From Eledone cirrhosa (taxonomy: Eukaryota): DNA of 64,000 nt. The position numbers and the translations under genes are program-made. This document shows positions 8,580-39,000 of this stretch, one piece after another; position 1 is the first letter of the stretch; each line of letters begins with the position of its first letter. The notes under the pieces are model-generated. The model made no database searches and was not told the DNA's origin. It saw only the letters and a program-made list of their open reading frames with translations. The DNA is taken from NCBI GenBank assembly GCA_964016885.1, contig OZ024756.1:42718001-42782000 (forward strand), given 5' to 3'.

Positions 8580-8700
8580 CGCCTGAAGTGGAACGAGCCA
8601 TCATCATCATCACCATAACTATTACCATAGTCCTCAACAGGTTGGGCAGAAATAAGCGCCGACTGCCCCCATCAACAGTTGTAATATAACAGCAAGACAT
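8580..8700 (-). CDS. Signal-peptide (leader) exon, IgSF copy A: MSCCYITTVDGGSRRLFLPNLLRTMVIVMVMMMMARSTSG
   Basis: ATG at 8700, 40 codons + 1 nt, G|GTAAGT donor, hydrophobic core and TSG cleavage motif. Identical by inspection to 22979-23099. Confidence 0.75.
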
Positions 8701-9582: not shown

Positions 9583-9584
9583 AT

Positions 9585-11844: not shown

Positions 11845-13011
11845 AGTGAGAGAGAGAGAGAGAGGGGGGAAGTGAGAGAGAGAATTATAGTATTATTCAA
11901 TTTCCGTTAGTGTAATCAATTAATTGTAGTCGACAGTAATGGTAGTGGTGTTGTAGTTGTTGTTATCGTTGGTAGTGGTGTGGTAGTCAACAGCAGTGGT
12001 GGTGGTAGTGGTGTTGCTGTCGTTGATAGTGTGGTAGTCAACAGTAATGGTGGTGGTGGTGGTGTTGTAGATTTTCTTGTTGTTGTTACCACTGTTGTTC
12101 TTTTTGTTCCTGTATGGGTTTTATCTCAATTGATGCTCAACCCTGTTGGAAAATAAGCAAAACAGTTGTCAGATATGTTGTCTCTACTGCCACACACTGT
12201 AATAAACAACCTTTAATTTAGTCTCTGTCCTATATATATATATATATATATGGGTATCTATGAAAGCATGGAAAAGCCGTCGTAAAAACGATGATGCTGA
12301 ATTCATGACTTTACTCAAATTCATGGTGCTAATAGTTTCATAGACTGAGCTGTTTTTTCACACACACCTTCTATGTATATTTAACATGTGGAGGTTATAA
12401 CACTTTCCTTTGGCTGAATAGCATCTGGATGTTAAAACACCTGCCAAGGGCTGGATATCACATGGATGTTAAGTGTTCAAAAGAGACGACTGTGCTGGTA
12501 TGGACATGTGATATGTATACTATTGGGTGAAAAAGTGCCAAGAAATCCCAGTTGAAGAAAGCTGCAGTAAAGGTAGACCAAGGACAAGCTAAGCAGAGGT
12601 GATGAGAGCTAATGACAATTGAAGAGAAAAATAAAACATACAGCAAGACATGTTTTTAAGGGAACAACTTAAAACAAGAAGTTAAAATTAACAAAATTGT
12701 TTAAGACTAGTGGTTTTAATTATATTTTCTTGTTTTAATGTTCTATATGATGTGGTAAGTGGTAACTAAATAATTGACATCAGGAAGGGCATCTGGATGT
12801 AAAACATTGTCACAAAACATCACATACAAACACTGATAGATGGAAAAGTGAACATAAAAACGATAATGTACTTATATTTCCTCTCTCTTCACAAAACTTC
12901 TAATTAAAAAACTGTAGTTATATTTATATTAAATTAATCTGAAATCATTACAGCTTGTTAGAGAAAAATATTTAAATCTGAAAGTTGTATATTACTAACC
13001 TGTTGACTCCT

Positions 13012-13112
13012 TTAACTGGTAAATAACAAAGAACTAAATAAAAAAAAGACAAGTACGTTAAATGCTATAACTCCAAGGTTGATACCAGCAATAGTTCCAC
13101 GACTTGATTCAC
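13012..13112 (-). CDS. Terminal coding exon, IgSF copy B: (S)ESSRGTIAGINLGVIAFNVLVFFLFSSLLFTS*, GPI-signal-like or tail anchor
   Basis: CAG acceptor at 13113-13115, phase 1. Small-residue cluster then a hydrophobic stretch ending at TAA 13012-13014. CAG|GTTAGT donor 12 nt after the stop. Confidence 0.75.
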
Positions 13113-14626: not shown

Positions 14627-14941
14627 TTTTATCTTTAATGTAGACTACAAAGTCAAGTTCCATTTTCAATACTGAACAGGTGATGGCTATATCGGGGTAG
14701 TCTTCAATTGTTACGTTGTAGTCAAACTGTGACTCTAATGAAACATAACAATTGTTAGTTTTTGGAACAAGCACAGATTTTTGACTGATTTCTGTTTCCT
14801 TACTTCCATGTATTACACTCCATTTAAACAGGACATGCTCTTCAGAATTGGGGACAAAATATAAATTACATCTGAAGGTAGATATCTGGTTAATTTTGTG
14901 GTTCTCAGTGTCAGACGTCAGATCTTTCATAAAAGATTTCA
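14627..14941 (-). CDS. C-type Ig-domain exon, IgSF copy B (315 bp, phase 1-1)
   Basis: TTTTCAG acceptor, GTAAGT donor, open frame; TFRC..FKW..ITC Ig pattern. Confidence 0.85.
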
Positions 14942-15039
14942 CTGAAAAGATAAAATGTAAATCTTAGTAAAATAAATAATGAAATGAAATCTTGGCTGCT
15001 TTCATTGATACAAACAACTAAAATGTTGAATGGGGAGGT

Positions 15040-16300
15040 TGCTTCTGATAGGACACTCTGGAAGGCATGTGTGAGGACTCTGCCCTAACAATACTCTCAT
15101 GTTGAGGAAGAGAAGCAGGGTAAATGCAATGAGGAACAACATCTATATGAAAATAACTACACACCCACTAATGACACTCAATCCAACAAAGGGGCCAACA
15201 AATTAAACCTAAGGGGATTCAGTAAGGGTAAACATACCACTAATGTCCTCTTCTTTGTGAGGGAAATGCAGGTAAAGTACCTAGCTAAACATAAGCCCCT
15301 CTACATGGCATTTGTTGACCTGAAGAAAGTATCTTACAAAGTTCTCTATTTCATAATCTGGTGGGCTGTTAGAAAAATAGGGGTAAGTTTCTTTTTCTAA
15401 CAGCCTTTTTCTTTGCCTAGTTGACTTTATGACCTTTTACTTCTAGAGCATGAATTTGTTCTCTATTTCTGCCATAATTTCAGCTAATGAGGATTAGATA
15501 ATCAGCATATAGGATTTCCCATGGGCAGCCAGTCTTACTATTCCGTTATAGCCTGCAAAATAATAATAAACAGGAGACGGCTATGAACAGACCCTTGAAG
15601 AACCCATATTTACACACTAAATTCCTCACTATAATAATTGTTAATACATGGCTTATACCACCCTCAAATAGAGAACAAATTCATGCTCTAGAAGTAAACG
15701 GTCATAAAGTCAAGTAGGCAAAGACTAACTTACTAGTAATTAGAAAGGAAAGACTAAATTTTTAGTAATTAGAAAGGAAAACAAGGTCCTGATAGCTTCA
15801 GGGAGTAGTCTTGCTTAATGTACAGGAGATGAATGAGTAGAAATTCTATCCTGTGTTCCAAATGATGACTATAGGTATACAAGTGATGTAATATGATCTC
15901 AGACAGCCTAGCAAAGATGTAGGTTTTATAAGTGGTTGATAAATAGGAGCAGTTAACAGTAAGGGCTCACGGACAACAAGCTCTATAGAGGACTCCATAG
16001 AAGTAGTTGATAGATTCTGTTACCTGTATGTGTTTGATGACTGTGTAATAGTAGTGTGCATGCAGGGCAAAGCTGTGAGAAAGACTGGGTATATAGGGTG
16101 CAGGTACAGTGTAGAGGAGAGGAGATTGCAGTGGTATGGACAAGTAAAGTTCATAGTGGCTGACAGCTGCGAAAAATGTGCAGGGTACTCAAAGTTGATG
16201 GCAGTTATGGAAGAGGAAATCTTGGGATGAAGTGATAAAAGCTAACCTTGCACATTTATAACTCTGAAAGGAAATGAAACAGGATCAACATCTCTGATGT
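15040..16300 (+). mobile_element. Degenerate RTE-type LINE RT fragment containing an internal inversion (15400-15665)
   Basis: KYLAKHKPLYMAFVDLKK-type RT motif and RRLQWYG C-terminal motif. Homologous to 28590-30040. Confidence 0.75.
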
Positions 16301-16334
16301 TTTGTTATATAGCAAAAGACCTACCTTCTAATTA

Positions 16335-16700
16335 CACACACACACTAGAGACAGACATTGGACACACAGTAGACAGACATTGAACACACACTAGAGACAG
16401 ACATTGGACACACAGTAGACAGACATTGAACACACACTAGAGACAGACATTGGACACACAGTAGACAGACATTGAACACACACTAGAGACAAACATTGGA
16501 CACACACCAGAGACAGACATTGGACACACACTAGAGACAGACATTGGACACACACTAGAGACAGACATTGGACACACACACTAGAGAGAAACATAACACT
16601 GACACAAAGACTCATACACACACTATAGAGAAACATTACATTACACACACACACTAGAGAGAGATATTACACATACACTGGAGAGAGACGTTACATACAA
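16335..16700. repeat. Short array (~10 good units plus degenerate tail) of the 24-bp CTAGAGACAGACATTGGACACACA minisatellite
   Basis: Same unit and same left flank (GACCTACCTT..AATTACACAC) as the 30061 array. Confidence 0.95.
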
Positions 16701-16860
16701 ACAATCATACATACACATACACATACACACAGATACATACATGTGCACACATATATATATATATAATATAGATAACATTAAAAAACAATAATAAGTATTT
16801 CTAACTGAAATGAAACAACAACAAAAGTGATGACTAATGAGAAAATGGAATAAAACTTAC

Positions 16861-17187
16861 TTTTTACAGACTTTGGTGGGGATTTACTCATATTTGTGGC
16901 ACATTGAAAATATGTTGCATCTTCGCAATTAGGGTTATTTTTCCAACACTGATACTCTCCATTCCATCCGTTAACTGCTGGTATTTTACAGCCAAAACCA
17001 GGTTTAGCTAGTCCTTTCTGAAATACTTTTGTATCTTTGTCGTAATCCAATATTAAAACCTCAGTTTCATTTCGTAGGATTTTCAAGACAATTACAAAAT
17101 TTAAGTCACCAATTACCTTACATGTTATCAATATTCTAGCTGATGATCCAACTTCAAATTCAGGTGTTATAGATTGGATATATACAT
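16861..17187 (-). CDS. V-like Ig-domain exon, IgSF copy B (327 bp, phase 1-1)
   Basis: TATACAG acceptor, GTAAGT donor, open frame DVYIQSIT..ILITCKV..NCEDATYFQC. B-strand Cys and D-x-x-x-F-x-C F-strand motif present. Confidence 0.85.
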
Positions 17188-17289
17188 CTGTATATAAAAT
17201 ATGGAAGAGGAGAAAATGATTAGACAAAGATTTATTAAAAAAATAACATATATAATGGCAAGTAGAGAAAAACTAAGACAGAGAAGAAA

Positions 17290-17450
17290 ATAATAATAGA
17301 AAGAGAAGAGGAGGAAGAAAAAGAAAAAGAAAAAGAAAAAGAAAAAGAAAAAGAAAAAGAAAAAGAAAAAGAAAAAGAAAAAGAAAAAGAAAAAGAAAAA
17401 AGAAGAAGAAGAAGAAGAAGAAGAAGAAGAAGAAGAAGAAGAAGAAGAAA
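17290..17450. repeat. (GAAAAA)n + (GAA)n homopurine tract
   Basis: Direct inspection. Confidence 0.95.
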
Positions 17451-17629
17451 CATGTAGACTGATGGAGAGAAACATGGAGAATGTGACAGTAAAATGTGTA
17501 TCTTCTTTGTTAGATTGGTTGCCCCATTAGAGGTAAGTCGGGTCAGATGACCATGCCTTGCATATATAGAACTATTTCTGGCTTGGTTTCTACAACTGGA
17601 TGCCCTTCCTAATGCCCACCATATTTGTA

Positions 17630-17812
17630 GTGTGGTGGGTACTTTTGGTTGTGACTCCTACATGACCACTTTACAGTGTGGTGGGTACTTTTGGTTGTGA
17701 CTCCTACATGACCACTTTACAGTGTGTACTTGAAGAGTTTTGTTGTGACACCTACACAACCACTTTACAGTGTTGGCTGGGTGTTTTTTGTTGTGACACC
17801 TACATGACCACT
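17630..17812. repeat. 46-bp minisatellite, ~4 units, in the leader-V intron
   Basis: Same unit as 1-770. Confidence 0.9.
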
Positions 17813-18282
17813 GTAGTTATATATACAAGGTTGACTGGTAACTCTGAAGATATGTGCTAACATTTATTGCATTTATAGAAAATGTTTAATGTTTTATGTT
17901 GGCAATTGAAGATTCAATTATGCTAGGAATTTTGTAGATCCTTTCCAGTTATGACTTTTAGCATTAACACCAAACATCCTGCAAACATTAATATATGCTG
18001 TATGATACCTACATTACACATATAAATTGAACATAGCCGATATACGAATGTTCCTGTCGTACACACCCAACCATTATGGAACACATATTGCATTACAATT
18101 TAGGAAATAAGAACACCAATAGATAAAAATCAAGCTAATACAACCATGTACACTTTCATATATTTTACATACACACATCTAATGGTAACAAGAGCGAATG
18201 TATAAAAATACATGATTCGGTCCCTTAAAACCTCAACACTTACATCTAATGTAAAACTGATACACATATATATATATTTATG

Positions 18283-18346
<64 letters not shown>

Positions 18347-18543
18347 CCAAAATCAGTTCTGTGAGAGCAAAACACGATCCTCCAACCTGGCTGTCTCACA
18401 ACAGGATAGCACGTCCTACCCATGCTAGAGTGGAATATGGACGTTAAACAATGATAATGATGAGGATGATGGATGGAGCTTATATGGTCCAACAAGAGTG
18501 CTAAACATCGCTCCTTGTTTGGTCAAACACACACACACACACA

Positions 18544-18616
<73 letters not shown>

Positions 18617-18624
18617 ATATATAT

Positions 18625-18680
<56 letters not shown>

Positions 18681-19702
18681 GGATAGATAGTTAGACATAC
18701 ATTTATGTTTCGTGTTTCAACAATGAAGAACTTGTCATTCTGTTTAATTAACCATGATATAATATTTTGTAGGAAAAACTCTCTACATTATGCAGGATGA
18801 ATTGTCACAACAATAACTGATATCGTGGGCCATCTCCGAATCAAATATTTTCTCTATTCTCTGTTTGCCGTACTTTCTTTATTGATTAACAAATTATGCA
18901 ATCTGAACCTGATGATGTCGCCAGTGTCCTACGTAACCTGGCCATTGAAATATATATAGTATTTTTTTTTTTTTTTGCAACAATAAAACTCTAAAGGGAT
19001 ATCACCAGCCCAGCCTCCTGTAGCTTTAATCAAATTAATATATAGAGACAGTTGTAGTTTGCTTGAAGGATTGTTGAATAGGAAATGTAAACTGAAATAA
19101 GTTTGAAAGCCTTACAATGCATTGAAAATTAAAGGTGCCAAGATAGCGATAGTATTTTACCATAGCAAATTTAATTATACTAAATATTTTCGGGCTTAAA
19201 AACCCATTATCAAGGGAGGATCCGTATGAAGGTCTTCAAAGATCAGTCGGAGTTGAGCTGCTGTTTGGCTGGCAGATTTAATTTAAATGTAAGGAAAAGA
19301 CGTTAAAAGTTCGAGTGTGCACGTTGTGAAATATGTGTGATAAAAAGTGTTTGATATATGCATGTGTGTGCGTGAATCTAAGTGTGTATGCTTAACGAGG
19401 ACGTAGATTTAATTTAAAAGAATGAATCACATTATTTTGTGTCTCTTCTTTATTCTGCCCTACACCATCTGTTTTGTGAGTTGTGGCACATATATATATA
19501 TTTGTACATTCATATGTACATGCATGTGCACATTTATATTTACATGCACAAAAAACTTCTTTTAACAACCTTAAACTTTTAACATCATTTCCCACTGGAT
19601 TTTCTCTCTAGAGTTACGTTGAGTCATAACAAGTAGTGTAGAATGATGTAATAATGTAGATTTCATAGTCTGACTACGTAATGCATTGATCTCTCACGGG
19701 TA

Positions 19703-19868
19703 GAGTCGGATTTACCATTGTGCTTAGGTGTGCTTAAGCACGGGGCCCTGTTGGCCAGTGGGACCTTTCTTGCCTATGTAGGCCTACCGAGCCTACCTCT
19801 TTAAGGACCTAAGTAAGGGGCGTAATAACTTAACTAGCACAGGGCCACATTTGTCTTAAATCTGGTAT
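19703..19868. mobile_element. Degenerate hAT-like MITE
   Basis: Ends GTCGGATTTA..TAAATCTGGT form an imperfect inverted repeat; internal GCACGGGGCCC/GCACAGGGCC motifs. Confidence 0.4.
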
Positions 19869-20215
19869 GCGAAGTCTAAACGGCGATATAATCAAGCAAG
19901 TTGACGACTTCAAATACCTGGGTAGCTATATCGCCTCCACAGAATATGATGTTAACATCAGACTAGGAAAAGCCTGGGGAGCATTGAATGCAATGGAAAA
20001 GATATGGAAATCAAACCTGCCGGCCAAACTGAAAAGGAATTCCTTCAGAGCTGCTGTGGAGTCTGTGCTTGTTTATGGCTCTATCGTTTGGACGCTAACG
20101 TCGAAACTGGAGAAAAAGCTAGACGGGGCATACACACGTATGCTCCGCGCTGCTTTAAAAGTGTCTTGGATGGAACACCCAACAAATAAGGATCTCTATA
20201 AGGATCACCTATCAG
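19867..20215 (+). mobile_element. RTE-clade LINE RT C-terminal fragment
   Basis: [45 protein letters not shown]. Confidence 0.88.
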
Positions 20216-20551
20216 CAGGTCAAATCTGGCACCAACAAGTATTAGTACACAAATTTAAAAGACTAACAACTTAGGAAAAAAAACAGAAATAGAGGCTTGC
20301 ACTGTTACTGTAGAGATTGAACCACATATGTTTAGCTGATAAGGCATAAATTGAGGAGAGAGGGAGAGAATGTAGGGAGACAGGGAGAAGGGGAAAACAG
20401 AGAGAGTGTGTCTAGGAGAGAAAGAGGGTGAGAATACTGGGGCATTTCTGAATGGGGCGAGGGGTAAAGTTGGTCAATTTAGTTGTAGTGATTAGTTTAG
20501 CTGTTATCTAACTGATCTGATATTTTTGTACATCCCCGCCCAAACCTATGA

Positions 20552-21314
20552 AGATTTCTAGGTGTTTCCACGAGGGAATAACCTAGATATAACTGTCCAT
20601 GGGTAAAATACGATTCTCTTGTATTCAATTCTACAACTTTGAAACTGAGTCTGAGCTTTATGTACGTTCATAGCAAAACTCTCTGACAGGGAACTGAAGT
20701 GTTGAGAATTGCAGCTCGGCAGAGGAAGAGATAAGAGAAATCTTGGGAATAAATGCATTTTCTCCTTGATGATTGCCTCCAAGAATGGTGACCTCTAGGA
20801 GATGGTTCGTCATCCCCTAGCTGTAAAACGTGTGCCATTGCTTAGAAGTAGCAGGTCCACATTTCTCAAAAGGATGAGGAAGTTCCAATATTTTATATTA
20901 TATGTAGATATAGCTATATAGATATAGATAATTGTATATAAATATGTGTGTGAGTAAACCAACGTCCGAATCGTGTGTCTAATTCTGTATATCTGATTAA
21001 GTATTTACGTAAAGATTTGTGTCTATGTAACTTACTAATGCGTAACGTACATAACGAGCGAGCAAACACACATACACTCACAGACACACACTCATATACA
21101 ACATGTGACATCGTCGTCGTGTTATAAAATATCCGTTTATTCATAGTAGATTATTTTAGATAAAGTGTTATATTGTTTTAATCTAAATAAAAATAAAAAT
21201 TATATCTTGTTAATCCCGGGGTCTAATACTATGTAAAATTTGATTTGATTTGGTCAAGCCGTTTGGGATTGCATAAGGAAAAGACAGACAGACAAAGAAT
21301 TTTATATATATAGA
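20552..21314 (-). mobile_element. Helitron helicase remnant (copy B homolog of 6360-7119)
   Basis: Near-identical to 6360-7119. Confidence 0.75.
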
Positions 21315-21710
21315 TATAAATTAATTATCAAAAAGATTATTAGATTTTTAAATGGCTTTGTTACTTTGGGACCACGCTGTATATTGGAAATTGGAAATTT
21401 TCAAACTTTTTAAAAGTTTCTTTCGTTCTGTGTGATCTGTAGAATTGACGTGACTTATTAGCGTCTAAGGAAATCTGGGGGAGAAAACCCCTACAGAAAA
21501 ATCCAGAGAGTCAGAAAAAAGGACAATCAGGCAGATATGTACTGTGATAGTTGACTAATATCTGACATCCCTTGGGACCGGGGGTGTAACTAGGTAAAAT
21601 AGCATTTATGGCATGCAACGAAATTCTGCCAAAACAACTGACACCCATCTTTCTTTTAGATAACCATAAAATCAGCTCAAAAATACCAATCACGCCGCCG
21701 TGCACAAACT

Positions 21711-21769
<59 letters not shown>

Positions 21770-21789
21770 CTATATATATATATGTATAA

Positions 21790-22390
21790 TTGCTTCTACT
21801 TTTGGCACAAGGCCAGCAATTATCCCAGTGTATTACTGGTACTTTATTTTATCGACCCCGTAAGGATGAAAGGCAAAGTTAACCTCGGCGGGATTTGAAC
21901 TCAGTCCGTAAAGGGACGTAACTGTGCTAATGGTTTCTAATTGGATATAGAGTGTATAAGAGAAGACTGTGTTGGTATGAACATGTGATATCTATGGAAG
22001 GTAACAACAGAGAATCTCCTGGAAGAGGTAGATCTAAGGAAACATGGCAGGAAGTAGTGAAGACTGACCTTCAAAAGCCACGACTGAAGGGAGTAGCCAT
22101 ATGCTGTACTGAAGACCTTCCTAATACTTTTTAATGAGCAGAAGAGGTGTAGCCATTATCTTCCGACTGAAGACTTGTCACAAACACATACAAACTGACT
22201 GACATTTATAACACACTACATTCTTAAATTCAAGCGTCAGACATCATGCTTTGCAACATAGAGTTATGACCCTTTATGTTCAAATACCGCCGAGCTTGGC
22301 TTTGCCTTTCATCCTTACGGGGTCGATAAAATAAGGTACCAGTAATGCACTGGGATAATTGCTGGCCTTGTGCCAAAAGTAAAAGCAATT
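21790..22390. mobile_element. Inverted pair of tRNA-SINE copies (21790-21925 minus, 22235-22390 plus)
   Basis: SINE core in opposite orientations; homologous to the 7580/8180 pair. Confidence 0.75.
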
Positions 22391-22614
22391 ATTACTATTG
22401 ATCTCAAACAGGTATTAATATACAAAGTTAGAAGACTAACAAGGGACGGAACTGTAACTGATGAAAGCTGAACCATGTATATTTGGCTGGTAGGGCTAAT
22501 GTCTTACCTGGGCATATATTGAGGGGGGAGGGATGAGGGGGGAGAGAGAGGTAGAGATGAGGGGGAGAGAGGAAGAAAGGAAAATAAAAGGGGGAAACAG
22601 AGTAATAATCGTTT

Positions 22615-22825
22615 CTGATTAAGGAACAAAGCCAGCAATTTTAGGGGTGAGGAAAATTTAATTAAATCGACCACAGGGCGTGACTGATACTTTATTTTAT
22701 CGACCCTGTAAGGAGGAAAGGCAAAGCTAACCACGGCTGGATTTGAACTGAGAATGTAAAGGGTTATAACTCTATGTCGCGAAGTAGGGTGCCCGTCACT
22801 CTACCGATTACTGCTACTCCACTAC
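22615..22825 (-). mobile_element. tRNA-derived SINE (copy-B-specific insertion)
   Basis: SINE core and head; absent at the copy A homologous site (~8500). Confidence 0.75.
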
Positions 22826-22855
22826 CTGCGTGTAAGAGAGGAGGAAAGTGTATAT

Positions 22856-22915
<60 letters not shown>

Positions 22916-22978
22916 GAGTGTGTAAAAGACAGAGAGAGCAACATGGGGAAAATTAAATTGTCTTTTGTCTTAACTTAC

Positions 22979-23099
22979 CGCCTGAAGTGGAACGAGCCAT
23001 CATCATCATCACCATAACTATTACCATAGTCCTCAACAGGTTGGGCAGAAATAAGCGCCGACTGCCCCCATCAACAGTTGTAATATAACAGCAAGACAT
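22979..23099 (-). CDS. Signal-peptide (leader) exon, IgSF copy B
   Basis: ATG at 23099, phase-1 G|GTAAGT donor. Splices in frame to the V exon giving TSG|DVYIQ. Confidence 0.8.
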
Positions 23100-23268
23100 A
23101 CTTTGATCCACGTAAAATATGAATTGTAACAGAAATAAAAAAAATATTTTACAATAGATTTTCTTGTCTAATTAATGTCTGTGGTGTAATAAAATTAATT
23201 AAAAGAAATGTACAAATTATAAGGTAATTAAACAGGTTAATCTAAACATAAATATTGTGTATATGTGA

Positions 23269-23304
<36 letters not shown>

Positions 23305-23388
23305 TGTGTGTGTGTGTGTGTGTGCAAAAAGTAAACAGAAGTAACATCACAATCGGTACAGTATATGGAAGGTATATATTAGGTTAAC

Positions 23389-24245
23389 GATTGAAATAGC
23401 AGGAAGAGGGTCTTAACGTTTCGGATGCTAGTCCTTCATCAGAAGAAAGAAAGACAAATAAGATAGATTGAAGGGACGGGCGGGTTGGAATTGAAAAAAT
23501 GTCTTTACATAAAAATAATAGGTCCATTCATGTTGACATCCCTTCGAAAATTGTTGATACTGGCGTTTTGTGTATGATTTAATTTTTTAGAAAAGTGGAT
23601 GATGGAGCGCGTCTACCTGAAATGAAAAAACAACCGTTTTGGAGAAAGAGCTATACTTGTGCGCGTGCGTATGCATGTGTGTTCGTACGAAGCTAAGAGG
23701 AAATGTGTGTGTATATGTAAGTAAAAGTGTGTGTGTGTGCTTGTAAGTGCGAAGCTATCAGTAAAACTATGTTAATATAAGGGCGGTGGATTGGCAGTAT
23801 CGGTAGAGAGTCTGACACCATGCTTTGAAGCATAGAGTTACGTCCCTTTATGATCTGATTTCAAATTCCGCCGAGGTTAACTTTGCCTTTCATCCTTACG
23901 GGGTCGATAAAATAAAGTACCAGTAATGTACTGCGTAATTGCTGGCCTTGTGCCAAAAGTAAAAGCAAATATAAGAGCGTGTATGTGAAGGGAAAAGTGG
24001 AGTTTGCATATTTTGTCGGTCTGTATTAGTTGTCAGAGAATATGTTTCTGCACATAAGAGAGCCATAGGAATCTAGGGGTGAGTGTACAAGCCCGTGTGA
24101 TAATGGACGGGGTATTAAAGAAATTGGGGACGTGAGTTGAGTCCATGAGGGAAATAGAACCCAAGGCGGTGAATCAGATAGAATTGTGTGGTTTGTTAAA
24201 TCGTGACGTTCTTTCTTGCAAATATCGAAAAATGCATAATATGAG
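23389..24245 (-). mobile_element. Penelope-like (Neptune-like) element 3' end with nested SINE (23782-23968, +)
   Basis: Insertion relative to copy A (~9960). Minus-strand remnant YLIHRLGFYFPHGLN resembles the GIY-YIG C-terminal I..L....P.GLN motif. Hammerhead motif at its 3' end. Confidence 0.7.
23411..23446 (-). ncRNA. Minimal type I hammerhead ribozyme
   Basis: UCUU-CUGAUGA-A-GGA(CUAGCA)UCC-GAAAC-GUU-AAGA: core boxes, stem II, palindromic ACGU stem III, 4-bp stem I. Confidence 0.7.
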
Positions 24246-24719
24246 AAAGTTAGTTTTCCTTGTTTTCTTAAATCCCAGAATGAAAGTAGTTAAAATAATC
24301 CGTATGTGAATAAACAACACATATACCCCATATATATTTCTCTAGAGTGGTGAGCGTGTATTAGAGCAAAATATATTTTGAAATGAAATCTAAAAACAAA
24401 AGAAGAACGACCAACTTTTAAAAATGGAACAAGTTGAAGGTAATATAGTAACAGGTTATTTTCCCTCAACTGATTTGTCTTGTAAATTAGTAGCAGCACA
24501 AATACACACTTACGTATGTAGCGTTCCAAATGTTATGATCAAAGAACGCCGTCTTATCATGTAACTCTCTGTAACAGAGTTTAGTTATTTTTTCTTCTTA
24601 AAATCCCAATAAAATTTTCTCTCTCCTTATTGACATGTATTTCTTTTTCTCCCCCTGTCTAGACATGTCTTTCTTTCTCTCCCACTCACTTCCCTGGTCT
24701 TTAGTTCTCTCTATCGATT

Positions 24720-26070
24720 TCTCTCACATTCTTTCATCTCTCCGTCTCTCTATTTCTCTTTCTCTCACATCCTCTATGTCCTTCTCTATAGAATGGAGAA
24801 AGAGAGATAATTCCAAAACAAAATGGCTTGATTGTTTTCAAATGATAACAGGAAAATAAATAACATTGAATTCCATATAAATTACTGTTTCGTTTCATTT
24901 TTCTTCTTTCATATTTCCACCCATATTTGCAAAGTTAACCTTGGCGGGATAATAAATGATTCTTTTGCAAGCAAACCTCAATACGCTATGTTTTTTTTAG
25001 AAGACTATCGGCATCGTTTTGTTCTAGCAGTGAAACAGAAACAAAATGATATTTGTTTTTTTTTTATGGCTTGCCTTACTGATGAATAACGGTTTGCTTG
25101 TGAGGGTGCTTGGTTGCTCCAGCGCCTTAGCCTCGCTACCACCAGTAATAATGCTGCCAGCATATTGGCTTGCCTCAAAAAGTATTAGAGGGCGGTTCCG
25201 GCACCCATTGAGGTGTGTGACTGATTGACAAACTTAATGTTGAATTAATATTTTTTCCGATTTGTATGTGAAATAGTTATGTAATTAAGCAGTATATATA
25301 TTATTTGTGTGTATAGTTTCATTCTGCGAAAGTGCATGGAATAGTGGTTAGAGCGTTGGGCTAACTTCGTTATTCTACTCTCACATTCTTTCATCTCTCT
25401 GTCTCTCTCTCTCTATCGATTTCTCTCACATTCTTTCATCTCTCTGTCTCTCTAATTCTCTTTTACTATCTCTTTCTCTCACATCCTCTCTGTCCTTCTC
25501 TATAGAATGGAGAAAGAGAGATAATTCCAAAACACAATGGCCAGATTGTTTTAAATGATAACAGGAAAATAAATAATTCCATATAAATTACTGTTTCGTT
25601 TCATTTTTCTATCATATTTCCACCAATATTTGCAATGTTATTTATACATCTGTAAATTAATATATTGTCTGTAATTTTATGAAATTTTGTAATTACAATG
25701 AATTCGTTAGTTTTATATCGAATAATAATAATTGTTTTTACTTTTGGCACAAGGTCAGCAATTATTTAAGTTTATTACTGGTACTTTATTTTATAGACGT
25801 CGTAATGATGAAAGGCAAATTTAACCTTGGCGGGATAATAAATGATTCTTTTGCAAGCAAACCTCCTCAATACGCTATTTTTTTAGATGACTATCGTCAT
25901 TCTTTTTTTTTTTGTGGCTTGCCTTACTTTTATATCAGGTGTTGCGTGTGAGGGTGCTTGGTTGCTCCAGCGCCTTAGCCACGCCATCACCATATTGTCT
26001 TGCCTCAAAAAGTATTAGAGGGTAGTTCCGGCACTCCTTGAGGTTGTGACTGATTGACAAACTTAATGTT
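24720..26070. repeat. Local tandem duplication (24720-25240 vs 25380-26070) in the spacer between copies C and B
   Basis: Two copies of CTATAGAATGGAGAAAGAGAGATAATTCC..GACTGATTGACAAACTTAATGTT; single copy at 10600-11200. Confidence 0.85.
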
Positions 26071-26370
26071 TGGGAGGGTCATGCTGCCAATTAAAAACAC
26101 ACACACGCATCTGTTGGTTTTCACTTCAATTTATTATGAATTATAAACACAAAAACAAGGTGGTATAGGACAGAACAAAGGAGAGACACAAAATAACAAA
26201 TGTTTCACTGAGGAAGTCACAGAATGTGTGACGAAAGAGCTTTGACAATAAACAAATAAACAACCATCTGGTTATTAAACTAACCGATTGGTAGTTTATA
26301 ATAAACTGAAGTGAAAACTAACAGGTGCATTTGTTTTTATTGGCAGCATGACTCTCAAACTATAACATTA
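26066..26370. mobile_element. MITE-like element (homolog of 11198-11580)
   Basis: TIRs GTCATGCTGCCAAT.. / ..ATTGGCAGCATGACTC. Confidence 0.7.
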
Positions 26371-26799
26371 TATATGGATAAAGAGAGAGAGTGAGAGAGA
26401 GAATTATAGTATTATTCAATTTCCGTTAGTGTAATCAATTAATTGTAGTCGACAGTAATGGTAGTGGTGTTGTAGTTGTTGTTGTCGTTGGTAGTGGTGT
26501 GGTAGTCAACAGCAGTGGTGGTGGTAGTGGTGTTGTTGTCGTTGATAGTGTGGTAGTCAACAGTAATGGTGGTGGTGGTGGTGTTGTAGATTTTCTTGTT
26601 GTTACCACTGTTGTTCTTTTTGTTCCTGTATGGGTTTTATCTCAATTGATGCTCAACCCTGTTGGAAAATAAGCAAAACAGTTGTCAGATATGTTGTCTC
26701 TACTGCCACACACTGTAATAAACAACCTTTAATTTAGCCTCTCTCTGTATATATATAGTAATAATAATAATAAATTTGAAGACTAACCTGTTGACTCCT

Positions 26800-26903
26800 T
26801 TAACTGGTAAATAACAAAGAACTAAATAAAAAAAAGACAAGTACGTTAAATGCTATAACTCCAAGTTTGATACCAGCAATAGTTCCACGACTTGATTCAC
26901 CAA
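26800..26903 (-). CDS. Terminal coding exon, IgSF copy C: (I)GESSRGTIAGIKLGVIAFNVLVFFLFSSLLFTS*
   Basis: TAG acceptor at 26904-26906 (3 nt upstream of the copy B site, in frame). Stop at 26800-26802. Confidence 0.72.
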
Positions 26904-27429
26904 CTATCAAGATAGAAAACAGGAGCAATAAGTTTGCTTCTAATATAGCCACATGATTTCAAATTTGGTGGGAGGGTTATAGTTGATTATATGAACCCCA
27001 GTATTTCACTGGTACTTTATTTTATCAATCCCAGAAAGGTGAAAAACCAAGTTGTCCTCAACAGGATTTAAAGTCAGAAAGTATAGAAGCAGGATAAATA
27101 CCACAAAGCATTTTGTCCAACGTTCTAACAACACTAATAATAATAATTTCTAACATTTTAAATAATTTTTTATACAAGGCCAACAATATAGAGGAAGAGG
27201 AAAGTCTATTTTATACCCCAATATTTATATGGTACTTTATTTTATTAATCACAGCTTTGACACTACAGACATCTCATCAGAATGTCTCAAGAACTAATCA
27301 CCGGACTGATTTTATGGGGGCAAAACTAAACGGCAAGAGACCCAAGTGTAGACACCTAGCAAGATGTTTGGATAACATCCATGAGCTTAGCTGGTCTCAC
27401 TTGGAGATCCAGCCAAATCAGTTGGAGAT

Positions 27430-27675
27430 ACAGTGTGTGCTGGGTATTTTTGTTACGACACCTACATGACTAATTTACAGTGTGGATTGGGTACTTTTGG
27501 TCGTGGCTCCTACATGACCACTTTACAGTGTGGGCTGGGAGCTTTTGTTGGGACACCTACATGACCACTTTACAGTGCGGGCTGGGTGCCTTTTACTAGG
27601 CTAGGCACCAAAACACTCAACTGACAGTTTGGACTGGGCGCGTTTCGTTGTGACACCTATATGACAACTTTACAC
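27430..27675. repeat. Degenerate 46-bp minisatellite (copy C)
   Basis: Recurring CCTACATGACCACTTTACAGTG. Confidence 0.8.
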
Positions 27676-28006
27676 CATAGACGTGGGTCTAAGGTGAGAC
27701 CTTAATTGTGTCAGTGATAATGAAGGTAGTAGAGTGGTTACAATGATGATGATGATGATGAACATGGTTGTAGTGGCAGTCATAGTGATAGTAGTTAAAC
27801 TGATCAAGATTATGAAAGTATAAATCCAAACACAAACACAGCAGTACAGAAATATGTACACACTTAATCAAATATATGAATAATTATGTATTTTAAACAT
27901 ATACATACCTCACATGGAAACATACAATCATGCATATATACACACATGCATGTATTGATAGAGGCAGACATGTATATAAAAATATGGAGTGATGCAGTGA
28001 CATGTG

Positions 28007-28062
<56 letters not shown>

Positions 28063-28134
28063 GGTTTGAGGTTTATATATATATATATATATATACACAC
28101 AAATGTAATACATAAAAGAAAATGATTTGCTTAC

Positions 28135-28449
28135 TTTTATCTGGAAGGAAGACTACAAAGTCAAGTTTCATTTTCAATACTGAACAGGTGATGGTTATAT
28201 TGGGGTAGTCTTCAATTGTTACGTTGTAGTAAAACCGTGACTCTAATGAAACATAACATTTGTTAATTTTTGGAAGAATCACAGTTTTTAGACTGACTTC
28301 TGTTTCGTTACTTCCATGTGTTACATTCCATTTAAACAGGACATTCTCGTCAGAATTTTGGACAAAATTTAAATGACATCTGAAGGTAGATATCTGGTTA
28401 ATTTTGTGGTTCTTAGTGTCAGACGTCAGATCTTTCAGAGCTGATTTCA
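28135..28449 (-). CDS. C-type Ig-domain exon, IgSF copy C (315 bp, phase 1-1)
   Basis: TTTTCAG acceptor, GTAAGC donor, open frame, ~75% aa identity to the copy B exon. Confidence 0.85.
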
Positions 28450-30060: not shown

Positions 30061-33000
30061 TACACACACTAGAGACAGACATTGGTCACACACTAGAGAC
30101 AGACATTGGACACACACACTAGTGACAGACATTGGACACACACTAGAGACAGACATTGGTCACACCCTAGAGACAGACATTGGACACACACTAGAGACAG
30201 ACATTGGACACACACTAGAGACAGACATTGGACACACACCAGAGACAGACATTGGACACACACTAGAGACAGACATTGGACACACACTAGAGACAGACAT
30301 TGGACACACACTAGAGACAGACATTGGACACACACTAGAGACAGACATTGGACACAAACTAGAGACAGACATTGGACACACACTAGAGACAGACATTGGA
30401 CACACACTAGAGACAGACATTGGACACACACTAGAGACAGACATTGGACACACACTAGAGACAGACATTGGACACACACTAGAGACAGACATTGGACACA
30501 AACTAGAGACAGACATTGGACACACACTAGAGACAGACATTGGACACACACTAGAGACAGACATTGGACACACACTAGAGACAGACATTGGTCACACACA
30601 CTAGTGACAGACATTGGACACACACTAGAGACAGACATTGGTCACACCCTAGAGACAGACATTGGACACACACTAGAGACAGACATTGGACACACACTAG
30701 AGACAGACATTGGACACACACTAGAGACAGACATTGGACACACACTAGAGACAGACATTGGACACACACTAGAGACAGACATTGGACACAAACTAGAGAC
30801 AGACATTGGACACACACTAGAGACAGACATTGGACACACACTAGAGACAGACATTGGACACACATTAGAGACAGACATTGGACACACATTAGAGACAGAC
30901 ATTGGACACACACTAGAGACAGACATTGGACACACATTAGAGACAGACATTGGACACACATTAGAGACAGACATTGGACACACACACTAGAGACAAACAT
31001 TGGACACACACTAGAGACAGACATTGGACACACTAGAGACAGACATTGGACACACTAGAGACAGACATTGGACATACACACTAGTGACAGACATTGGACA
31101 CACACTAGAGACAGACATTGGACACACTAGAGACAGACATTGGACACACTAGAGACAGGCATTGGACATACACACTAGTGACAGACATTGGACACACACT
31201 AGAGACAGACATTGGACACACAGTAGAGACAGACAATGGACACACACCAGAGACAGACATTGTACACACACCAGAGACAGACATTGGACACACATTAGAG
31301 ACAGACATTGGACACACACTAGAGACAGACATTGGACACACACCAGAGATAGACATTGGACACACACACTAGAGACAGACATTGGACACACACACTAGAG
31401 ACAGACATTGGACACACACTAGAGACAGACATTGGATACACACTAGAGACAGACATTGGACACACTAGAGACAGACATTGGGCACACACTAGAGACTGAC
31501 ATTGGAGACACTAGAGACAGACATTGGACACACACTAGACAGACATTGGACACACAATAGAGACAGACATTGGACACACACTAGAGACAGACATTGGACA
31601 CACACTAGAGACAGAAATTGGACACACACCATAGTCAGACATTGGACACACATTAGAGACAGACATTGGACACACTAGAGACAGACATTGGACACACACT
31701 AGAGACAGACATTGGACACACACATTAGAGACAGACATTGGACACACACACTAGAGACAGACATTGGACACACACCAGAGACAGACGTTGGACACACACT
31801 AGAGACAGACATTTGAGACACACTAGAGACAGACATTGGACACACACTAGAGACAGACATTGGACACACACTAGAGACAGACATTGGACACACACTAGAG
31901 AGAGACATTGGACACACATTAGAGACAGACATTGGACACACATTAGAGACAGACATAGGACACACACTAGAGACAGACATTGGACACACTAGAGACAGAC
32001 ATTGGACACACTAGAGACAGACATTGGTCACACACTAGAGACAGACATTGGACACACACTAGAGACAGACATTAGACACACACTAGAGACAGACATTGGA
32101 CACACACTAGGGACAGACATTGGATACACACTAGAGACAGACATTGGACACACATTAGAGACAGACATTGGACACACACTAGAGACAGACATTGGACACA
32201 CACTAGAGACAGACATTGGACACACACCAGAGACAGACATTGGACACACACTAGAGACAGACATTGGACACACACCAGAGACAGACATTGGACACACACT
32301 AGAGACAGACATTGGACACACACTAGAGACAGACATTGGACACACACCAGAGACAGACATTGGACACACACTAGAGACAGACATTGGACACACACACTAG
32401 AGACTGACATTGGACACACACTAGAGACAGACATTGGAGACACTAGAGACAGACATTGGACACACACACTAGTGACAGACATTGGACACACACTAGAGAC
32501 AGACATTGGACACACACTAGAGACAGACATTGGACACACACTAGAGACAGACATTGGACACACTAGAGACAGACATTGGACACACACTAGAGACAGACAT
32601 TGGACACACACACTAGAGACTGACATTGGACACACACTAGAGACAGACATTGGAGACACTAGAGACAGACATTGGACACACACACTAGATACAGACATTG
32701 GACACACACTAGAGACAGACATTGGACACACACTAGAGACAGACATTGGAGACACACTAGAGACAGACATTGGACACACTAGAGACAGACTTTGGACACA
32801 CACTAGAGACAGACATTGGACACACACTAGAGACAGACATTGGACACACATTAGAGACAGAGATTAGACACACACTAGAGACAGACATTGGACACACACT
32901 AGAGACAGACATTGGACACACACTAGAGACAGACATTGGACACACACCATAGTCAGACATTGGACACACACACTAGAGAAAGACATTGGACACACAATAG

Positions 33001-36000
33001 AGACAGACATTAGACACACACCAGAGACAGACATTGGACACACACTAGAGACAGACATTGGACACACACCAGAGACAGACATTGGTCACACACTAGAGAC
33101 AGACATTGGACACACACTAGAGACAGACATTGGACACACACTAGAGACAGACATTGGACACACACTAGAGAAAAACATTTGACACACACTAGAGACAAAC
33201 GTTGGACACACACACTAGAGACAAACGTTGGACACGCACACTAGAGACAGACATTGGACACACACTAGAGACAGACATTGGACACACTAGAGACAGACAT
33301 TGGACACACACATTAGAGACAGACATTGAACACACACACTAGAGACAGACATTGGACACACACTAGAGACAGACGTTGGATACACACTAGAGACAGACAT
33401 TGGAGACACTAGAGACAGACATTGGACACACACACTAGTGACAGGCATTGGACACACACTAGAGACAGACATTGGACACACACTAGAGACAGACATTGGA
33501 CACACACTAGAGACAGACATTGGACACACTAGAGACAGACATTGGACACACACTAGAGACAGACATTGGAGACACTAGAGACAGACATTGGACACACACA
33601 CTAGTGACAGACATTGGACACACACTAGAGACAGACACTGGACACACACTAGAGACAGACATTGGACACACACTAGAGACAGACATTGGACACACTAGAG
33701 ACAGACATTGGACACACACTAGAGACAGACATTGGACACACACTAGAGACAGACATTGGACACACATTAGAGACAGAGATTAGACACACACTAGAGACAG
33801 ACATTGGAAACACACTAGAGACAGACATTGGACACACACTAGAGACAGAAATTGGACACACACCATAGTCAGACATTGGACACACATTAGAGACAGACAT
33901 TGGACACACACTAGAGACAGACATTGGACACACACTAGAGACAGACATTGGACACACACATTAGAGACAGACATTGGACACACACACTAGAGACAGACAT
34001 TGGACACACACTAGAGACAGACGTTGGATACACACTAGAGACAGACATTGGAGACACTAGAGACAGACATTGGACACACACACTAGTGACAGGCATTGGA
34101 CACACACTAGAGACAGACATTGGACACACACTAGAGACAGACATTGGACACACACTAGAGACAGACATTGGACACACTAGAGACAGACATTGGACACACA
34201 CTAGAGACAGACATTGGAGAAACTAGAGACAGACATTGGACACACACACTAGTGACAGACATTGGACACACACTAGAGACAGACACTGGACACACACTAG
34301 AGACAGACATTGGACACACACTAGAGACAGACATTGGACACACTAGAGACAGACATTGGACACACACTAGAGACAGACATTGGACACACACTAGAGACAG
34401 ACATTGGACACACATTAGAGACAGAGATTAGACACACACTAGAGACAGACATTGGAGACACACTAGAGACAGACATTGGACACACTAGAGACAGACTTTG
34501 GACACACACTAGAGACAGACATTGGACACACACTAGAGACAGACATTGGACACACATTAGAGACAGAGATTAGACACACACTAGAGACAGACATTGGACA
34601 CACACTAGAGACAGACATTGGACACACACTAGAGACAGACATTGGACACACACCATAGTCAGACATTGGACACACACACTAGAGAAAGACATTGGACACA
34701 CAATAGAGACAGACATTAGACACACACCAGAGACAGACATTGGACACACACTAGAGACAGACATTGGACACACACCAGAGACAGACATTGGTCACACACT
34801 AGAGACAGACATTGGACACACACTAGAGACAGACATTGGACACACACTAGAGACAGACATTGGACACACACTAGAGAAAAACATTTGACACACACTAGAG
34901 ACAAACGTTGGACACACACACTAGAGACAAACGTTGGACACACACACTAGAGACAGACATTGGACACACACTAGAGACAGACATTGGACACACTAGAGAC
35001 AGACATTGGACACACACATTAGAGACAGACATTGAACACACACACTAGAGACAGACATTGGACACACACTAGAGACAGACGTTGGATACACACTAGAGAC
35101 AGACATTGGAGACACTAGAGACAGACATTGGACACACACACTAGTGACAGGCATTGGACACACACTAGAGACAGACATTGGACACACACTAGAGACAGAC
35201 ATTGGACACACACTAGAGACAGACATTGGACACACTAGAGACAGACATTGGACACACACTAGAGACAGACATTGGAGACACTAGAGACAGACATTGGACA
35301 CACACACTAGTGACAGACATTGGACACGCACTAGAGACAGACACTGGACACACACTAGAGACAGACATTGGACACACACTAGAGACAGACATTGGACACA
35401 CTAGAGACAGACATTGGACACACACTAGAGACAGACATTGGACACACACTAGAGACAGACATTGGACACACATTAGAGACAGAGATTAGACACACACTAG
35501 AGACAGACATTGGAAACACACTAGAGACAGACATTGGACACACACTAGAGACAGAAATTGGACACACACCATAGTCAGACATTGGACACACATTAGAGAC
35601 AGACATTGGACACACACTAGAGACAGACATTGGACACACACTAGAGACAGACATTGGACACACACATTAGAGACAGACATTGGACACACACACTAGAGAC
35701 AGACATTGGACACACACTAGAGACAGACGTTGGATACACACTAGAGACAGACATTGGACACACTAGAGACAGACATTGGGCACACACTAGAGACTGACAT
35801 TGGACACACACTAGAGACAGACATTGGAGACACTAGAGACAGACATTGGACACACACACTAGTGACAGACATTGGACACACACTAGAGACAGACATTGGA
35901 CACACACTAGAGACAGACATTGGACACACACTAGAGACAGACATTGGACACACTAGAGACAGACATTCGACACACACTAGAGACAGACATTGGACACACA

Positions 36001-39000
36001 CTAGAGACTGACATTGGACACACACTAGAGACAGACATTGGAGAAACTAGAGACAGACATTGGACACACACACTAGTGACAGACATTGGACATACACTAG
36101 AGACAGACATTGGACACACACACTAGAGACAGACATTGGACACACACTAGAGACAGACATTGGACACACTAGAGACAGACATTGGGCACACACTAGAGAC
36201 AGATATTGGAGACACTAGAGACAGACATTGGACACACACACTAGTGACAGACATTGGACACACACTAGAGACAGACATTGGACACACTCTAGAGACAGAC
36301 ATTGGACACACTAGAGACAGACATTGGACACACACTAGAGACAGACATTGGACACACACTAGAGACTGACATTGGACACACACTAGAGACAGACATTGGA
36401 GACACTAGAGACAGACATTGGACACACTAGAGACAGACATTGGGCAAACACTAGAGACTGACATTGGACACACACTAGAGACAGACATTGGAGACACTAG
36501 AGACAGACATTGGACACACACACTAGTGACAGACATTGGACACACACTAGAGACATACATTAGACACACACTAGAGACAGACATTGGACACACACTAGAG
36601 ACAGACATTGGACACACTAGAGACAGACATTGGACACACACTAGAGACAGACATTGGACACACACTAGAGACAGACATTGGACACACACTAGAGACAGAC
36701 ATTGGACACACTAGAGACAGACATTGGACACACACTAGAGACAGACATTGGACACACACTAGAGACAGACATTGGACACACATTAGAGACAGAGATTAGA
36801 CACACACTAGAGACAGACATTGGACACACACTAGAGACAGACATTGGACACACACTAGAGACAGACATTGGACACACACCATAGTCAGACATTGGACACA
36901 CACACTAGAGAAAGACATTGGACACACAATAGAGACAGACATTAGACACACACCAGAGACAGACATTGGACACACACTAGAGACAGACATTGTGCACACA
37001 CCAAAGACAGACATTGGGAACACACTAGAGACAGACATTGGACACACACTAGAGACAGACATTGGGCACACACTAGAGACAGACATTGGACACACACTAG
37101 AGAAAAACATTTGACACACACTAGAGACAGACGTTGGACACACACACTAGAGACAGACATTGGACACACACTAGAGACAGACATTGGACAGACTAGAGAC
37201 AGACATTGGACACACACTAGAGACAGACATTGGACACACACACAAGGGACAGTCATTGGAGACACACTAGATAGAGACATTGGAGACACTAGAGACAGAC
37301 ATTGGACACACTAGAGACAGACATTGGGCACACACTAGAGACTGACATTGGACACACACTAGAGACAGACATTGGAGACACTAGAGACAGACATTGGACA
37401 CACACACTAGTGACAGACATTGGACACACACTAGAGACAGACATTGGACACACACTAGAGACAGACATTGGACACAAACTAGAGACAGACATTGGACACA
37501 CACTAGATACAGACATTGGACACACACCAGAGACAGACATTGGACACACACTAGAGACAGACATTGGAGACACACTAGAAAGAGACATTGGACTTACACT
37601 AGAGACAGACATTGGAGACACACTAGAGACAGACATTGGACACACACTATAGACAGACATTGGACACACACTAGAGACAGACATTGGACACACACTAGAT
37701 ACAGACATTGGACACACACCAGAGACAGACGTTGGACACACACAAGAGACAGACATTGGAGACACACTAGAGACAGACATTGGACACACACTAGAGACAG
37801 ACATTGGACACACACTAGAGACAGACATTGGACACACACTAGAGACAGACATTGGACACACATTAGAGACAGACATTGGACACACATTAGAGACAGACAT
37901 AGGACACACACTAGAGACAGACATTGGACACACTAGAGACAGACATTGGACACACTAGAGACAGACATTGGTCACACACTAGAGACAGACATTGGACACA
38001 CACTAGAGACAGACATTAGACACACACTAGAGACAGACATTGGACACACACTAGGGACAGACATTGGATACACACTAGAGACAGACATTGGACACACATT
38101 AGAGACAGACATTGGACACACACTAGAGACAGACATTGGACACACACTAGAGACAGACATTGGACACACACCAGAGACAGACATTGGACACACACTAGAG
38201 ACAGACATTGGACACACACCAGAGACAGACATTGGACACACACTAGAGACAGACATTGGACACACACTAGAGACAGACATTGGACACACACCAGAGACAG
38301 ACATTGGACACACACTAGAGACAGACATTGGACACACACACTAGAGACTGACATTGGACACACACTAGAGACAGACATTGGAGACACTAGAGACAGACAT
38401 TGGACACACACACTAGTGACAGACATTGGACACACACTAGAGACAGACATTGGACACACACTAGAGACAGACATTGGACACACTAGAGACAGACTTTGGA
38501 CACACACTAGAGACAGACATTGGACACACACTAGAGACAGACATTGGACACACATTAGAGACAGAGATTAGACACACACTAGAGACAGACATTGGACACA
38601 CACTAGAGACAGACATTGGACACACACTAGAGACAGACATTGGACACACACCATAGTCAGACATTGGACACACACACTAGAGAAAGACATTGGACACACA
38701 ATAGAGACAGACATTAGACACACACCAGAGACAGACATTGGACACACACTAGAGACAGACATTGGACACACACCAGAGACAGACATTGGTCACACACTAG
38801 AGACAGACATTGGACACACATTAGAAACAGACATTGGACACACACTAGAGACAGACATTGGACACACACTAGAGAAAAACATTTGACACACACTAGAGAC
38901 AGACGTTGGACACACACACTAGCGACAGACATTGGACACACACTAGAGACAGACATTGGACACACTAGAGACAGACATTGGACACACACATTAGAGACAG

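Follow-up and report, generated by a model that had tools for sequence, protein, structure and literature searches.

The stretch of DNA analysed in this study, called the window below, comprises 64,000 nucleotides of the octopod Eledone cirrhosa (C17:42718001-42782000, numbered 1-64000), and its first 30 kb hold the minus-strand parts of three tandem units, copies A, B and C. Judged from its sequence, the window carries part of a tandem cluster of about 13 genes for cell-surface proteins with immunoglobulin (Ig) domains, an array which spans 1.2 Mb and follows the unit plan leader-(V-C)n-membrane exon, where V and C stand for V-type and C-type Ig exons. Across the paralogous Ig exons of this array, amino acid change in the outer domains proceeds at two to three times the rate that neutral drift would permit, and we are highly confident that positive selection on them is real.

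Copy B (unit g7, V-C, with a predicted protein of 287 amino acids) is laid out on the minus strand as a leader (signal peptide) exon at 22979..23099, a V-type Ig exon of 108 codons at 16861..17187, a C-type Ig exon of 104 codons at 14627..14941 and a tail exon at 13000..13112. The tail exon is a degenerate transmembrane (TM) exon, in which a hydrophobic stretch is followed by a stop at 13012-13014 and which is predicted to resemble a glycosylphosphatidylinositol (GPI) signal. A putative last exon, deduced from a shared acceptor at 12142 and with an approximate end (11916..12142, minus strand), is made of a simple Thr/Asn-type repeat and is untranslated in B. Upstream of the leader lies a minus-strand non-coding block (24290..24560) common to nine genes, possibly a promoter or an exon of the 5' untranslated region. 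Copy C, which appears from its sequence to be the 3' end of the four-Ig gene g6 with its leader about 515 kb away, contributes a minus-strand tail exon of the same degenerate type with a stop (26788..26903) and the last Ig exon of g6, of C type (28135..28449, minus strand). Copy A (g8) has a leader at 8580..8700 (minus strand) and a C-type Ig exon at 1221..1528 (minus strand) that is out of frame and, with 308 nt, falls 7 nt short; with no V exon between the two, it is likely a pseudogene.

The units are numbered g1-g13 from high to low C17 coordinates, in a map built from 80 stretches of 10 kb, with the satellite-filled parts sampled only and all gene models deduced from splice signals and homology. 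A search of the species' own genome returned 17 V matches, 16 C matches plus a frameshifted one and 12 leaders, all within C17:42.56-43.72 Mb, and one additional weak leader match on C13. Unit g1, on the plus strand, is V-C with a full tail, g2 is V-C-V-C with no leader found and adjoins an assembly gap, g3 is V-C, g4 is (V-C)3, and g5 and g6 are (V-C)2 each; the domain number thus varies between genes (2, 4 or 6 Ig), and the N-glycosylation sequons shift. Units g9, g11 and g12 appear intact, while frameshifts in g10 and g13 bring the broken units, with g8, to three.

Amino acid divergence of the paralogous Ig exons

The original prediction proposed diversifying selection from the C exons of copies B and C, for which about 30 nucleotide differences, 26 amino acid changes and a single clearly silent change were claimed. 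Recounting over the 315 nt of each exon gives 30 nucleotide differences and 26 changed residues out of 104; the Ser codon TCT/TCA is the sole fully silent one, CCC/CAA adding half a silent step, and the cysteines and tryptophan (C24, W40, C64 and C88) are retained in both, as had been stated. Both exons are bounded by AG/GT splice ends on the minus strand. With 1.5 synonymous and 28.5 nonsynonymous differences, the nonsynonymous and synonymous rates (dN and dS) are 0.126 and 0.023, and this pair alone reaches one-sided Fisher p values of 0.024, 0.009 and 0.005 for transition/transversion ratios (kappa) of 1, 2 and 3.

The same prediction set the similarity of introns, leaders and tails beside this change, and each of these observations is reproduced: the introns of B and C differ in 73 of 1635 gap-free columns (4.5%), the leaders of A and B (8580-8700 and 22979-23099) show 0 differences in 121 nt, and the tails of B and C are separated by one substitution and one extra codon. 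Over all non-coding DNA the two copies differ in 137 of 3189 gap-free columns (4.3%). Nonsynonymous sites lie above the intron rate (p = 4e-5) and synonymous sites are indistinguishable from the non-coding rate (p = 1.0), so that dN is raised and dS is not lowered, and exon divergence exceeds that of the flanking introns. A divergence of 9.5% for the intron piece beside the C exon was rejected as the product of a misaligned (AT)n tract, without which it is 3.8%.

Introns and dS are sound controls, whereas the leader is a weak one: the leader exon and the upstream block are near-identical even in old paralogs and hence are no neutral yardstick. Six genes have one and the same leader, the old paralog g12 departs from it by a single base, and the 270-bp upstream block has a mean divergence of 2.5% over nine genes, including old paralogs with an Ig dS of 0.3-0.6, which suggests either homogenised promoter-leader cassettes or constraint at the nucleotide level.

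With more paralogs the signal persists. The frameshifted exons g8C, g13C and g10V were excluded from all codon tests. For the C exons, dN is greater than dS in 42 of the 45 pairs that the ten youngest form (mean 0.109 vs 0.044); the ten youngest V exons show this in all 45 (0.128 vs 0.066, with V-flanking introns 4.0% different), and at all depths it holds for 102 of the 105 pairs of C exons and 118 of the 120 pairs of V exons. Since exon pairs are not independent, codeml-type likelihood models were fitted, in our own implementation with naive empirical Bayes posteriors. Under M0, with ranges that cover three frequency models, the dN/dS ratio, omega, comes to 2.9-3.1 in the ten youngest C exons (p 1e-4 to 5e-4); in the ten youngest V exons it is 1.7-2.4 (p 0.04 to 3e-4). 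The site models favour positively selected sites: twice the log-likelihood difference (2dL) of M2a against M1a is 38.8 for C and 47.2 for V, omega being 8.1 and 6.4, respectively, at about 30% of sites, that of M8 against M8a is 38.5 and 46.8, and M8 against M7, the comparison proposed at the outset, is concordant. For all intact exons (15 C and 16 V) M0 gives 2.41 and 1.31, and M2a against M1a gives 54.9 and 69.2.

A recombination signal was seen among V exons (p = 0.009; C, p = 0.058); therefore each distinct variant was counted once. This tree-free count yields 9 silent and 81 replacement variants for C, and 12 and 98 for V, where the local intron mutation spectrum would predict 24% and 22% silent, so that fewer silent variants are observed than expected (p 4e-4 and 1e-3). 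Neutral simulations with conversion tracts were as extreme as the data in 0 of 1000 runs for C and 1 of 1000 for V. When multi-hit codons are dropped, omega for C is 3.26 (p = 8e-4), and the tree-free p becomes 0.009 for C and 0.085 for V, with a spectrum that included a non-homologous g8 intron (32% apart). From the dN excess at old as well as recent depths, and from repeated changes at the same sites, selection appears to be recurrent instead of one-off. The claim of diversifying selection thus holds across 10 to 16 paralogous exons, in codon models, tree-free counts, comparison with the intron mutation spectrum and neutral simulations.

Domain structure, membrane exons and relatives

The predicted structure of the V exon is a nine-strand V domain (mean predicted local distance difference test, pLDDT, 83), whose top structural matches are V domains: nanobodies, nectin-2 D1, Siglec-15 and PD-1. 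Nectin-2 D1 (Z 10.8, root-mean-square deviation 2.5, 93 residues aligned) is tied with antibody V domains, both lying around Z 10.5. Five cysteines are invariant in the V exon, and two of them, C22 and C95, found in 16 of 16 exons and placed in strands 16-25 and 91-97, would form a B-F disulfide bond in the model. The canonical C-strand Trp is missing (none in strand 33-38), and the V exon has no Pfam V-set match, only PF00047 at E 0.025 in 2 of 16 V exons; this is an atypical V domain. The C exon is modelled as a seven-strand Ig-like sandwich (pLDDT 91), and all 15 aligned C exons retain C24, W40 and C88. Among known structures it is matched best by a bacterial Ig-like domain (Z 13.0), followed by VCAM-1 D2 (Z 10.5) and the second domain region of SIRP-gamma (Z 9.7), the last being a fold-level likeness that ranks below the bacterial domains; atlas neighbours are of C1-set/C2-set type at 0.92, and the domain may be of either set. 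At curated cut-offs Pfam gave no match for either domain, for which reason routine immune-gene surveys would miss the family.

Mapping of the variable residues on the structure model, as had been suggested, places 8 of the 13 top V sites at the N-terminus or in the BC, C'C'', DE and FG loops; with loop limits taken from the model strands, 8 of 33 loop or N-terminal positions are top sites compared with 5 of 74 elsewhere (p = 0.015). Antibodies and SIRP-alpha bind at that loop end of the V domain. In the C domain, H35, Q53, S55, L57 and Y100 would by their strand parity share one exposed face of the model. A prediction of a V-domain homodimer scored 0.00 with the alignment not used, and bears neither way.

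The tails differ along the array. In g1 the TM segment is 91% identical to that of an Argonauta protein (V 38%, C 30%), and each of its tail exons matches Octopus or Argonauta tails: one with ENAVYAKP, a proline-rich one with LHYAEL and TLYAEV, and a last one ending in YAPGSSV. LHYAEL fits the definition of a tyrosine-based inhibitory motif of immunoreceptors (ITIM) as quoted in the text seen of PMC9546547. Within the region read, the second tail exon and the ITIM exon occur in g1 only, the latter being single-copy there. TLYAEV would fit the consensus of the tyrosine-based switch motif (ITSM). Units g9, g11, g12 and g13 keep the TM segment with short unrelated tails, and g3 and one g2 exon shift frame directly after the helix. 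The helix encoded by the degenerate TM exon of g4-g8 and of the second g2 exon contains a polar residue, the original frame runs into a stop, and there is a poly-T run of 7, 8 or 9; the tail is removed at all three lengths. Some of these length differences may be sequencing error; two contigs of short reads, whose flank letters are of g8 type and g4/g5 type, have no indel relative to B, such contigs being liable to be mosaics. The B tail exon region and that of the intact TM exon in g1 are 82% identical in nucleotides; the B and C tail exons derive from the TM exon, with the tail lost by a stop, and the cut tails are probably GPI signals by which the youngest copies would be anchored. In g2 (C17:43639719-43640163) about 230 nt separate a TM exon from a degenerate tail exon, and alternative splicing might here switch the type of anchor. 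The repeat exon at 11916-12142 contains an apparent ITIM, VDYHTI, which we do not accept as one, since in all phases a stop precedes it and the simple repeat around it is variable. Copy A has in its last exon (C17:42713400-42715407) a roughly 1.9-kb expansion of the short Asn/Thr-type repeat, compared with about 0.2 kb in B.

A profile search with the V domain found 36 proteins among 1.84 billion (best E 7e-50), 30 of which were looked up: 28, all uncharacterised or automatically named, are from O. vulgaris, O. sinensis, O. bimaculoides or Argonauta, and 2 are unnamed. These relatives (O. sinensis LOC115221679 and LOC118766816; O. bimaculoides LOC106878948-54 and LOC106880708-15; O. vulgaris CAI9737727-38; Argonauta GAB1601880) have their genes mostly on one long contig per Octopus species, and the LOC115221679-like proteins are true homologs with the same leader type, a V domain with the motif CWK..C.D...C, a C domain, a TM segment and a tail. 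A single branch separates all 16 V domains of the present array from 30 V domains of other octopods (support 93/99), which points to lineage-specific birth and death or to concerted evolution. Octopus proteins whose C, TM and tail parts are near-identical but whose preceding V exons differ (62% identical) suggest V-exon shuffling or repeated V-C units in Octopus too. The founder comparison between O. vulgaris and O. sinensis (V 64/103, C 101/103) was discarded as evidence on alleles: O. vulgaris has a further V exon with 93% identity to that of O. sinensis, so the two proteins have different V exons before a similar C. A word-indexed homolog search with the C exon found no longer proteins (weak evidence). 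No description of the family, nor any diversified immune or self-recognition receptor family in cephalopods, was found in the literature searched, which excludes supplements and most subscription journals; the family may sit in expression tables under other identifiers. Squid Sgp-1 is a GPI-anchored Ig protein of another cephalopod, and the literature listing contained passing mentions of it only. The parts seen of a 2025 review of the invertebrate Ig superfamily (IgSF) do not mention octopus, cephalopod or squid (PMC11999971), and those of the O. vulgaris haemocyte transcriptome mention Ig members only together with leucine-rich repeats (PMC4199593).

The rest of the window and its surroundings are rich in repeats. 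A short array of a 24-bp satellite lies in the V-to-C intron of B (16336..16699, 0.36 kb, unstranded), and at 30062..64000 (likewise unstranded) begins an array of about 495 kb within the V-to-C intron of g6, beyond which g6 leader-V-C-V is found at C17:43241772-43261165, with one 200-N gap between. Satellite also makes up ten of ten further samples of 10 kb taken from C17:42.80 to 43.23 Mb. In g4 and g5 the same intron measures about 110-117 kb and is satellite-rich where sampled; since g4, g5 and B hold the 24-bp satellite at this position, the g6 model across the array is supported. The three sampled satellite introns extend over C17:42748062-43241771 (g6, ~495 kb), 43271886-43389268 (g5, ~117 kb) and 43441531-43550500 (g4, ~109 kb). 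The first V exons of g5 (C17:43424891-43425256) and g6 (43258533-43258898) have an in-frame 39-nt internal duplication in common. Units g1 and g2 (C17:43653399-43702695) are inverted with near-identical C exons (dN 0.017, dS 0.015), which could reflect paired-receptor conversion or a scaffolding effect. A recurrent, putatively SINE-like repeat and 47-bp minisatellites lie at window positions 2235-3068, 9120-9950, 19834-20274 and 28698-29360, where translated fragments resemble a GIY-YIG-type element and LINE reverse transcriptases.

Candidate explanations and their meaning

The original prediction connected this pattern with receptor-ligand or host-pathogen diversification. The ITIM-consensus founder, the tail-less copies and the variable sites at the V loop tip fit such an account, in which the ligand itself stays a conjecture. 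More specifically, we give even chances to the reading that these are octopod V-C Ig receptors, expanded in tandem and positively selected in their outer domains, likely to be tail-less and probably GPI-anchored decoys of an ITIM-bearing founder directed against a pathogen or parasite adhesin. A founder of inhibitory type would have been duplicated repeatedly in tandem, the full-tailed g1 representing the ancestral state and its tail presumably recruiting SH2 phosphatases; the copies would have shed the signalling tail when their membrane exon acquired a stop or frameshift, probably becoming GPI-anchored, and a shifting ligand, for example a pathogen, would have driven change in both Ig domains of young copies that are presumably expressed.

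Mammalian CEACAM and PSG genes offer a close likeness, with V and C-type Ig domains, one ITIM/ITSM-tailed founder, tail-less copies, gene conversion and positive selection. According to the part seen of PMC2832619, GPI-anchored CEACAMs arose more than once by stops in TM exons, with decoy roles and gene conversion, and CEACAM selection at adhesin-bound surfaces is described in what was seen of PMC8860441. By this analogy the family would work like CEACAMs in design without being one: no homology to CEACAM N or A/B domains is apparent among the 36 profile matches, no PDB sequence matches below E 0.55, and here, unlike in CEACAM/PSG, V and C repeat together as a unit and C is also selected. The CEACAM N domain lacks a disulfide, unlike the V domain here with its five invariant cysteines. 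SIRP, CD33-related Siglec and LILR paired receptors likewise join a V + C ectodomain and a tandem tyrosine-motif tail to loop-tip variation. A partner with an activation motif (ITAM) was not seen here, though no systematic search was made. Gastropod fibrinogen-related proteins (FREPs) are diversified molluscan IgSF immune proteins with fibrinogen, as given in the text seen of PMC11999971; neither our gene models nor the 25 relatives that were read contain fibrinogen or lectin domains of the FREP or VIgL kind, and the tail is of membrane type.

Several points weigh against the decoy reading or loosen parts of it. M0 omega is 1.31 with all 16 V exons, and without multi-hit codons the V exons give an M0 of 1.57 (p = 0.14) and a 2dL of 11.5 for M2a against M1a. 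The C domain, membrane-proximal in B and C, is selected as much as V, unlike in a simple tip-binding decoy. Several Octopus relatives end in a different hydrophobic tail. The ITIM consensus is short and can be matched by chance, and, while LHYAEL is conserved in O. sinensis, the second motif is TPYAET there. The head-to-head order of g1 and g2 is unsure because they meet at a 200-N assembly gap (43664041). As for expression and splicing, the C exon occurs in no indexed RNA run, and the two runs that hold it, from one sample, have genomic-type cover of introns and repeats with no splice joints among the rows listed.

That there is no selection at all, and that pseudogenes, mutation bias, gene conversion or errors of assembly have produced the pattern as an artefact, is very improbable and largely refuted. 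Three units are indeed broken, the young C set has next to no purifying class under M2a (a weaker result for our reading as well) and the recombination signals have been noted, but neutral decay would bring omega near 1, not 3, dN lies above intron divergence while dS equals it, and neither the intron-derived spectrum nor the conversion simulations reproduce the data; moreover, Cys and Trp are invariant in the 15 aligned C exons, and a short-read contig is identical to part of the B C exon across 14598-14723. If selection is accepted, it might instead maintain a code of self/non-self or cell identity, in which like binds like and new specificities are favoured, as in Hydractinia Alr1/Alr2 or clustered protocadherins, with the cassettes allowing interchangeable or stochastic expression. 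We consider this unlikely, yet selection on both V and C, the leader shared by six genes and nearly so by an old paralog, the 2.5% upstream block over genes with Ig dS up to 0.3-0.6 and the nectin-2 D1 match, tied as it is with antibody V domains, all agree with it. The Alr genes, too, are clustered, in an invertebrate, and encode divergent IgSF receptors of the V-set with ITIM/ITAM tails, pseudogenes being among them, as far as the text seen of PMC9546547 goes; the difference is that no homology was found and that tails are mostly lost here, most young copies having no signalling tail, that the present locus is not known to be linked with an allorecognition phenotype, and the annotated relatives have no Fn3-like spacer after the Ig domains, the C domain passing through a short linker into the TM segment or tail.

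Recognition between gametes or in the reproductive tract, diversified by sexual conflict or sperm competition, would also agree with a lineage-specific expansion and with a whole-domain omega above 1, which we understand to be typical of reproductive surface proteins as well; it is nonetheless quite improbable, as the conserved tyrosine-motif tail of the founder and the repeated tail loss fit immune receptor families better. Slighter still is the probability that an adhesion or surface-coat family simply adapted to new endogenous partners after duplication, without an outside antagonist: Ig numbers of 2, 4 or 6 and the shifting sequons would suit such neofunctionalisation, but the dN excess extends over old and recent depths (102/105 C and 118/120 V pairs) with the same sites changed repeatedly.

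Rapidly evolving Ig clusters are already known, and the octopod family would therefore be, as far as its sequences tell, a convergent variant with strong selection statistics. Our broadest proposal, tentative and rather doubtful at present, is that octopods independently evolved a CEACAM-like system, in which an ITIM-bearing inhibitory receptor is accompanied by diversifying tail-less decoys or identity tags, with near-identical promoter-leader cassettes and satellite introns of 100-500 kb. With omega well above 1, a single signalling-tailed founder and repeated tail loss, the locus is a concrete and testable candidate. If such a system exists, it would be a candidate pathogen-decoy or self-recognition locus of the octopus: under the decoy reading, the CEACAM strategy would have arisen twice from unrelated Ig genes, and under that of an identity code, a molecular handle on octopus self-recognition would be at hand.

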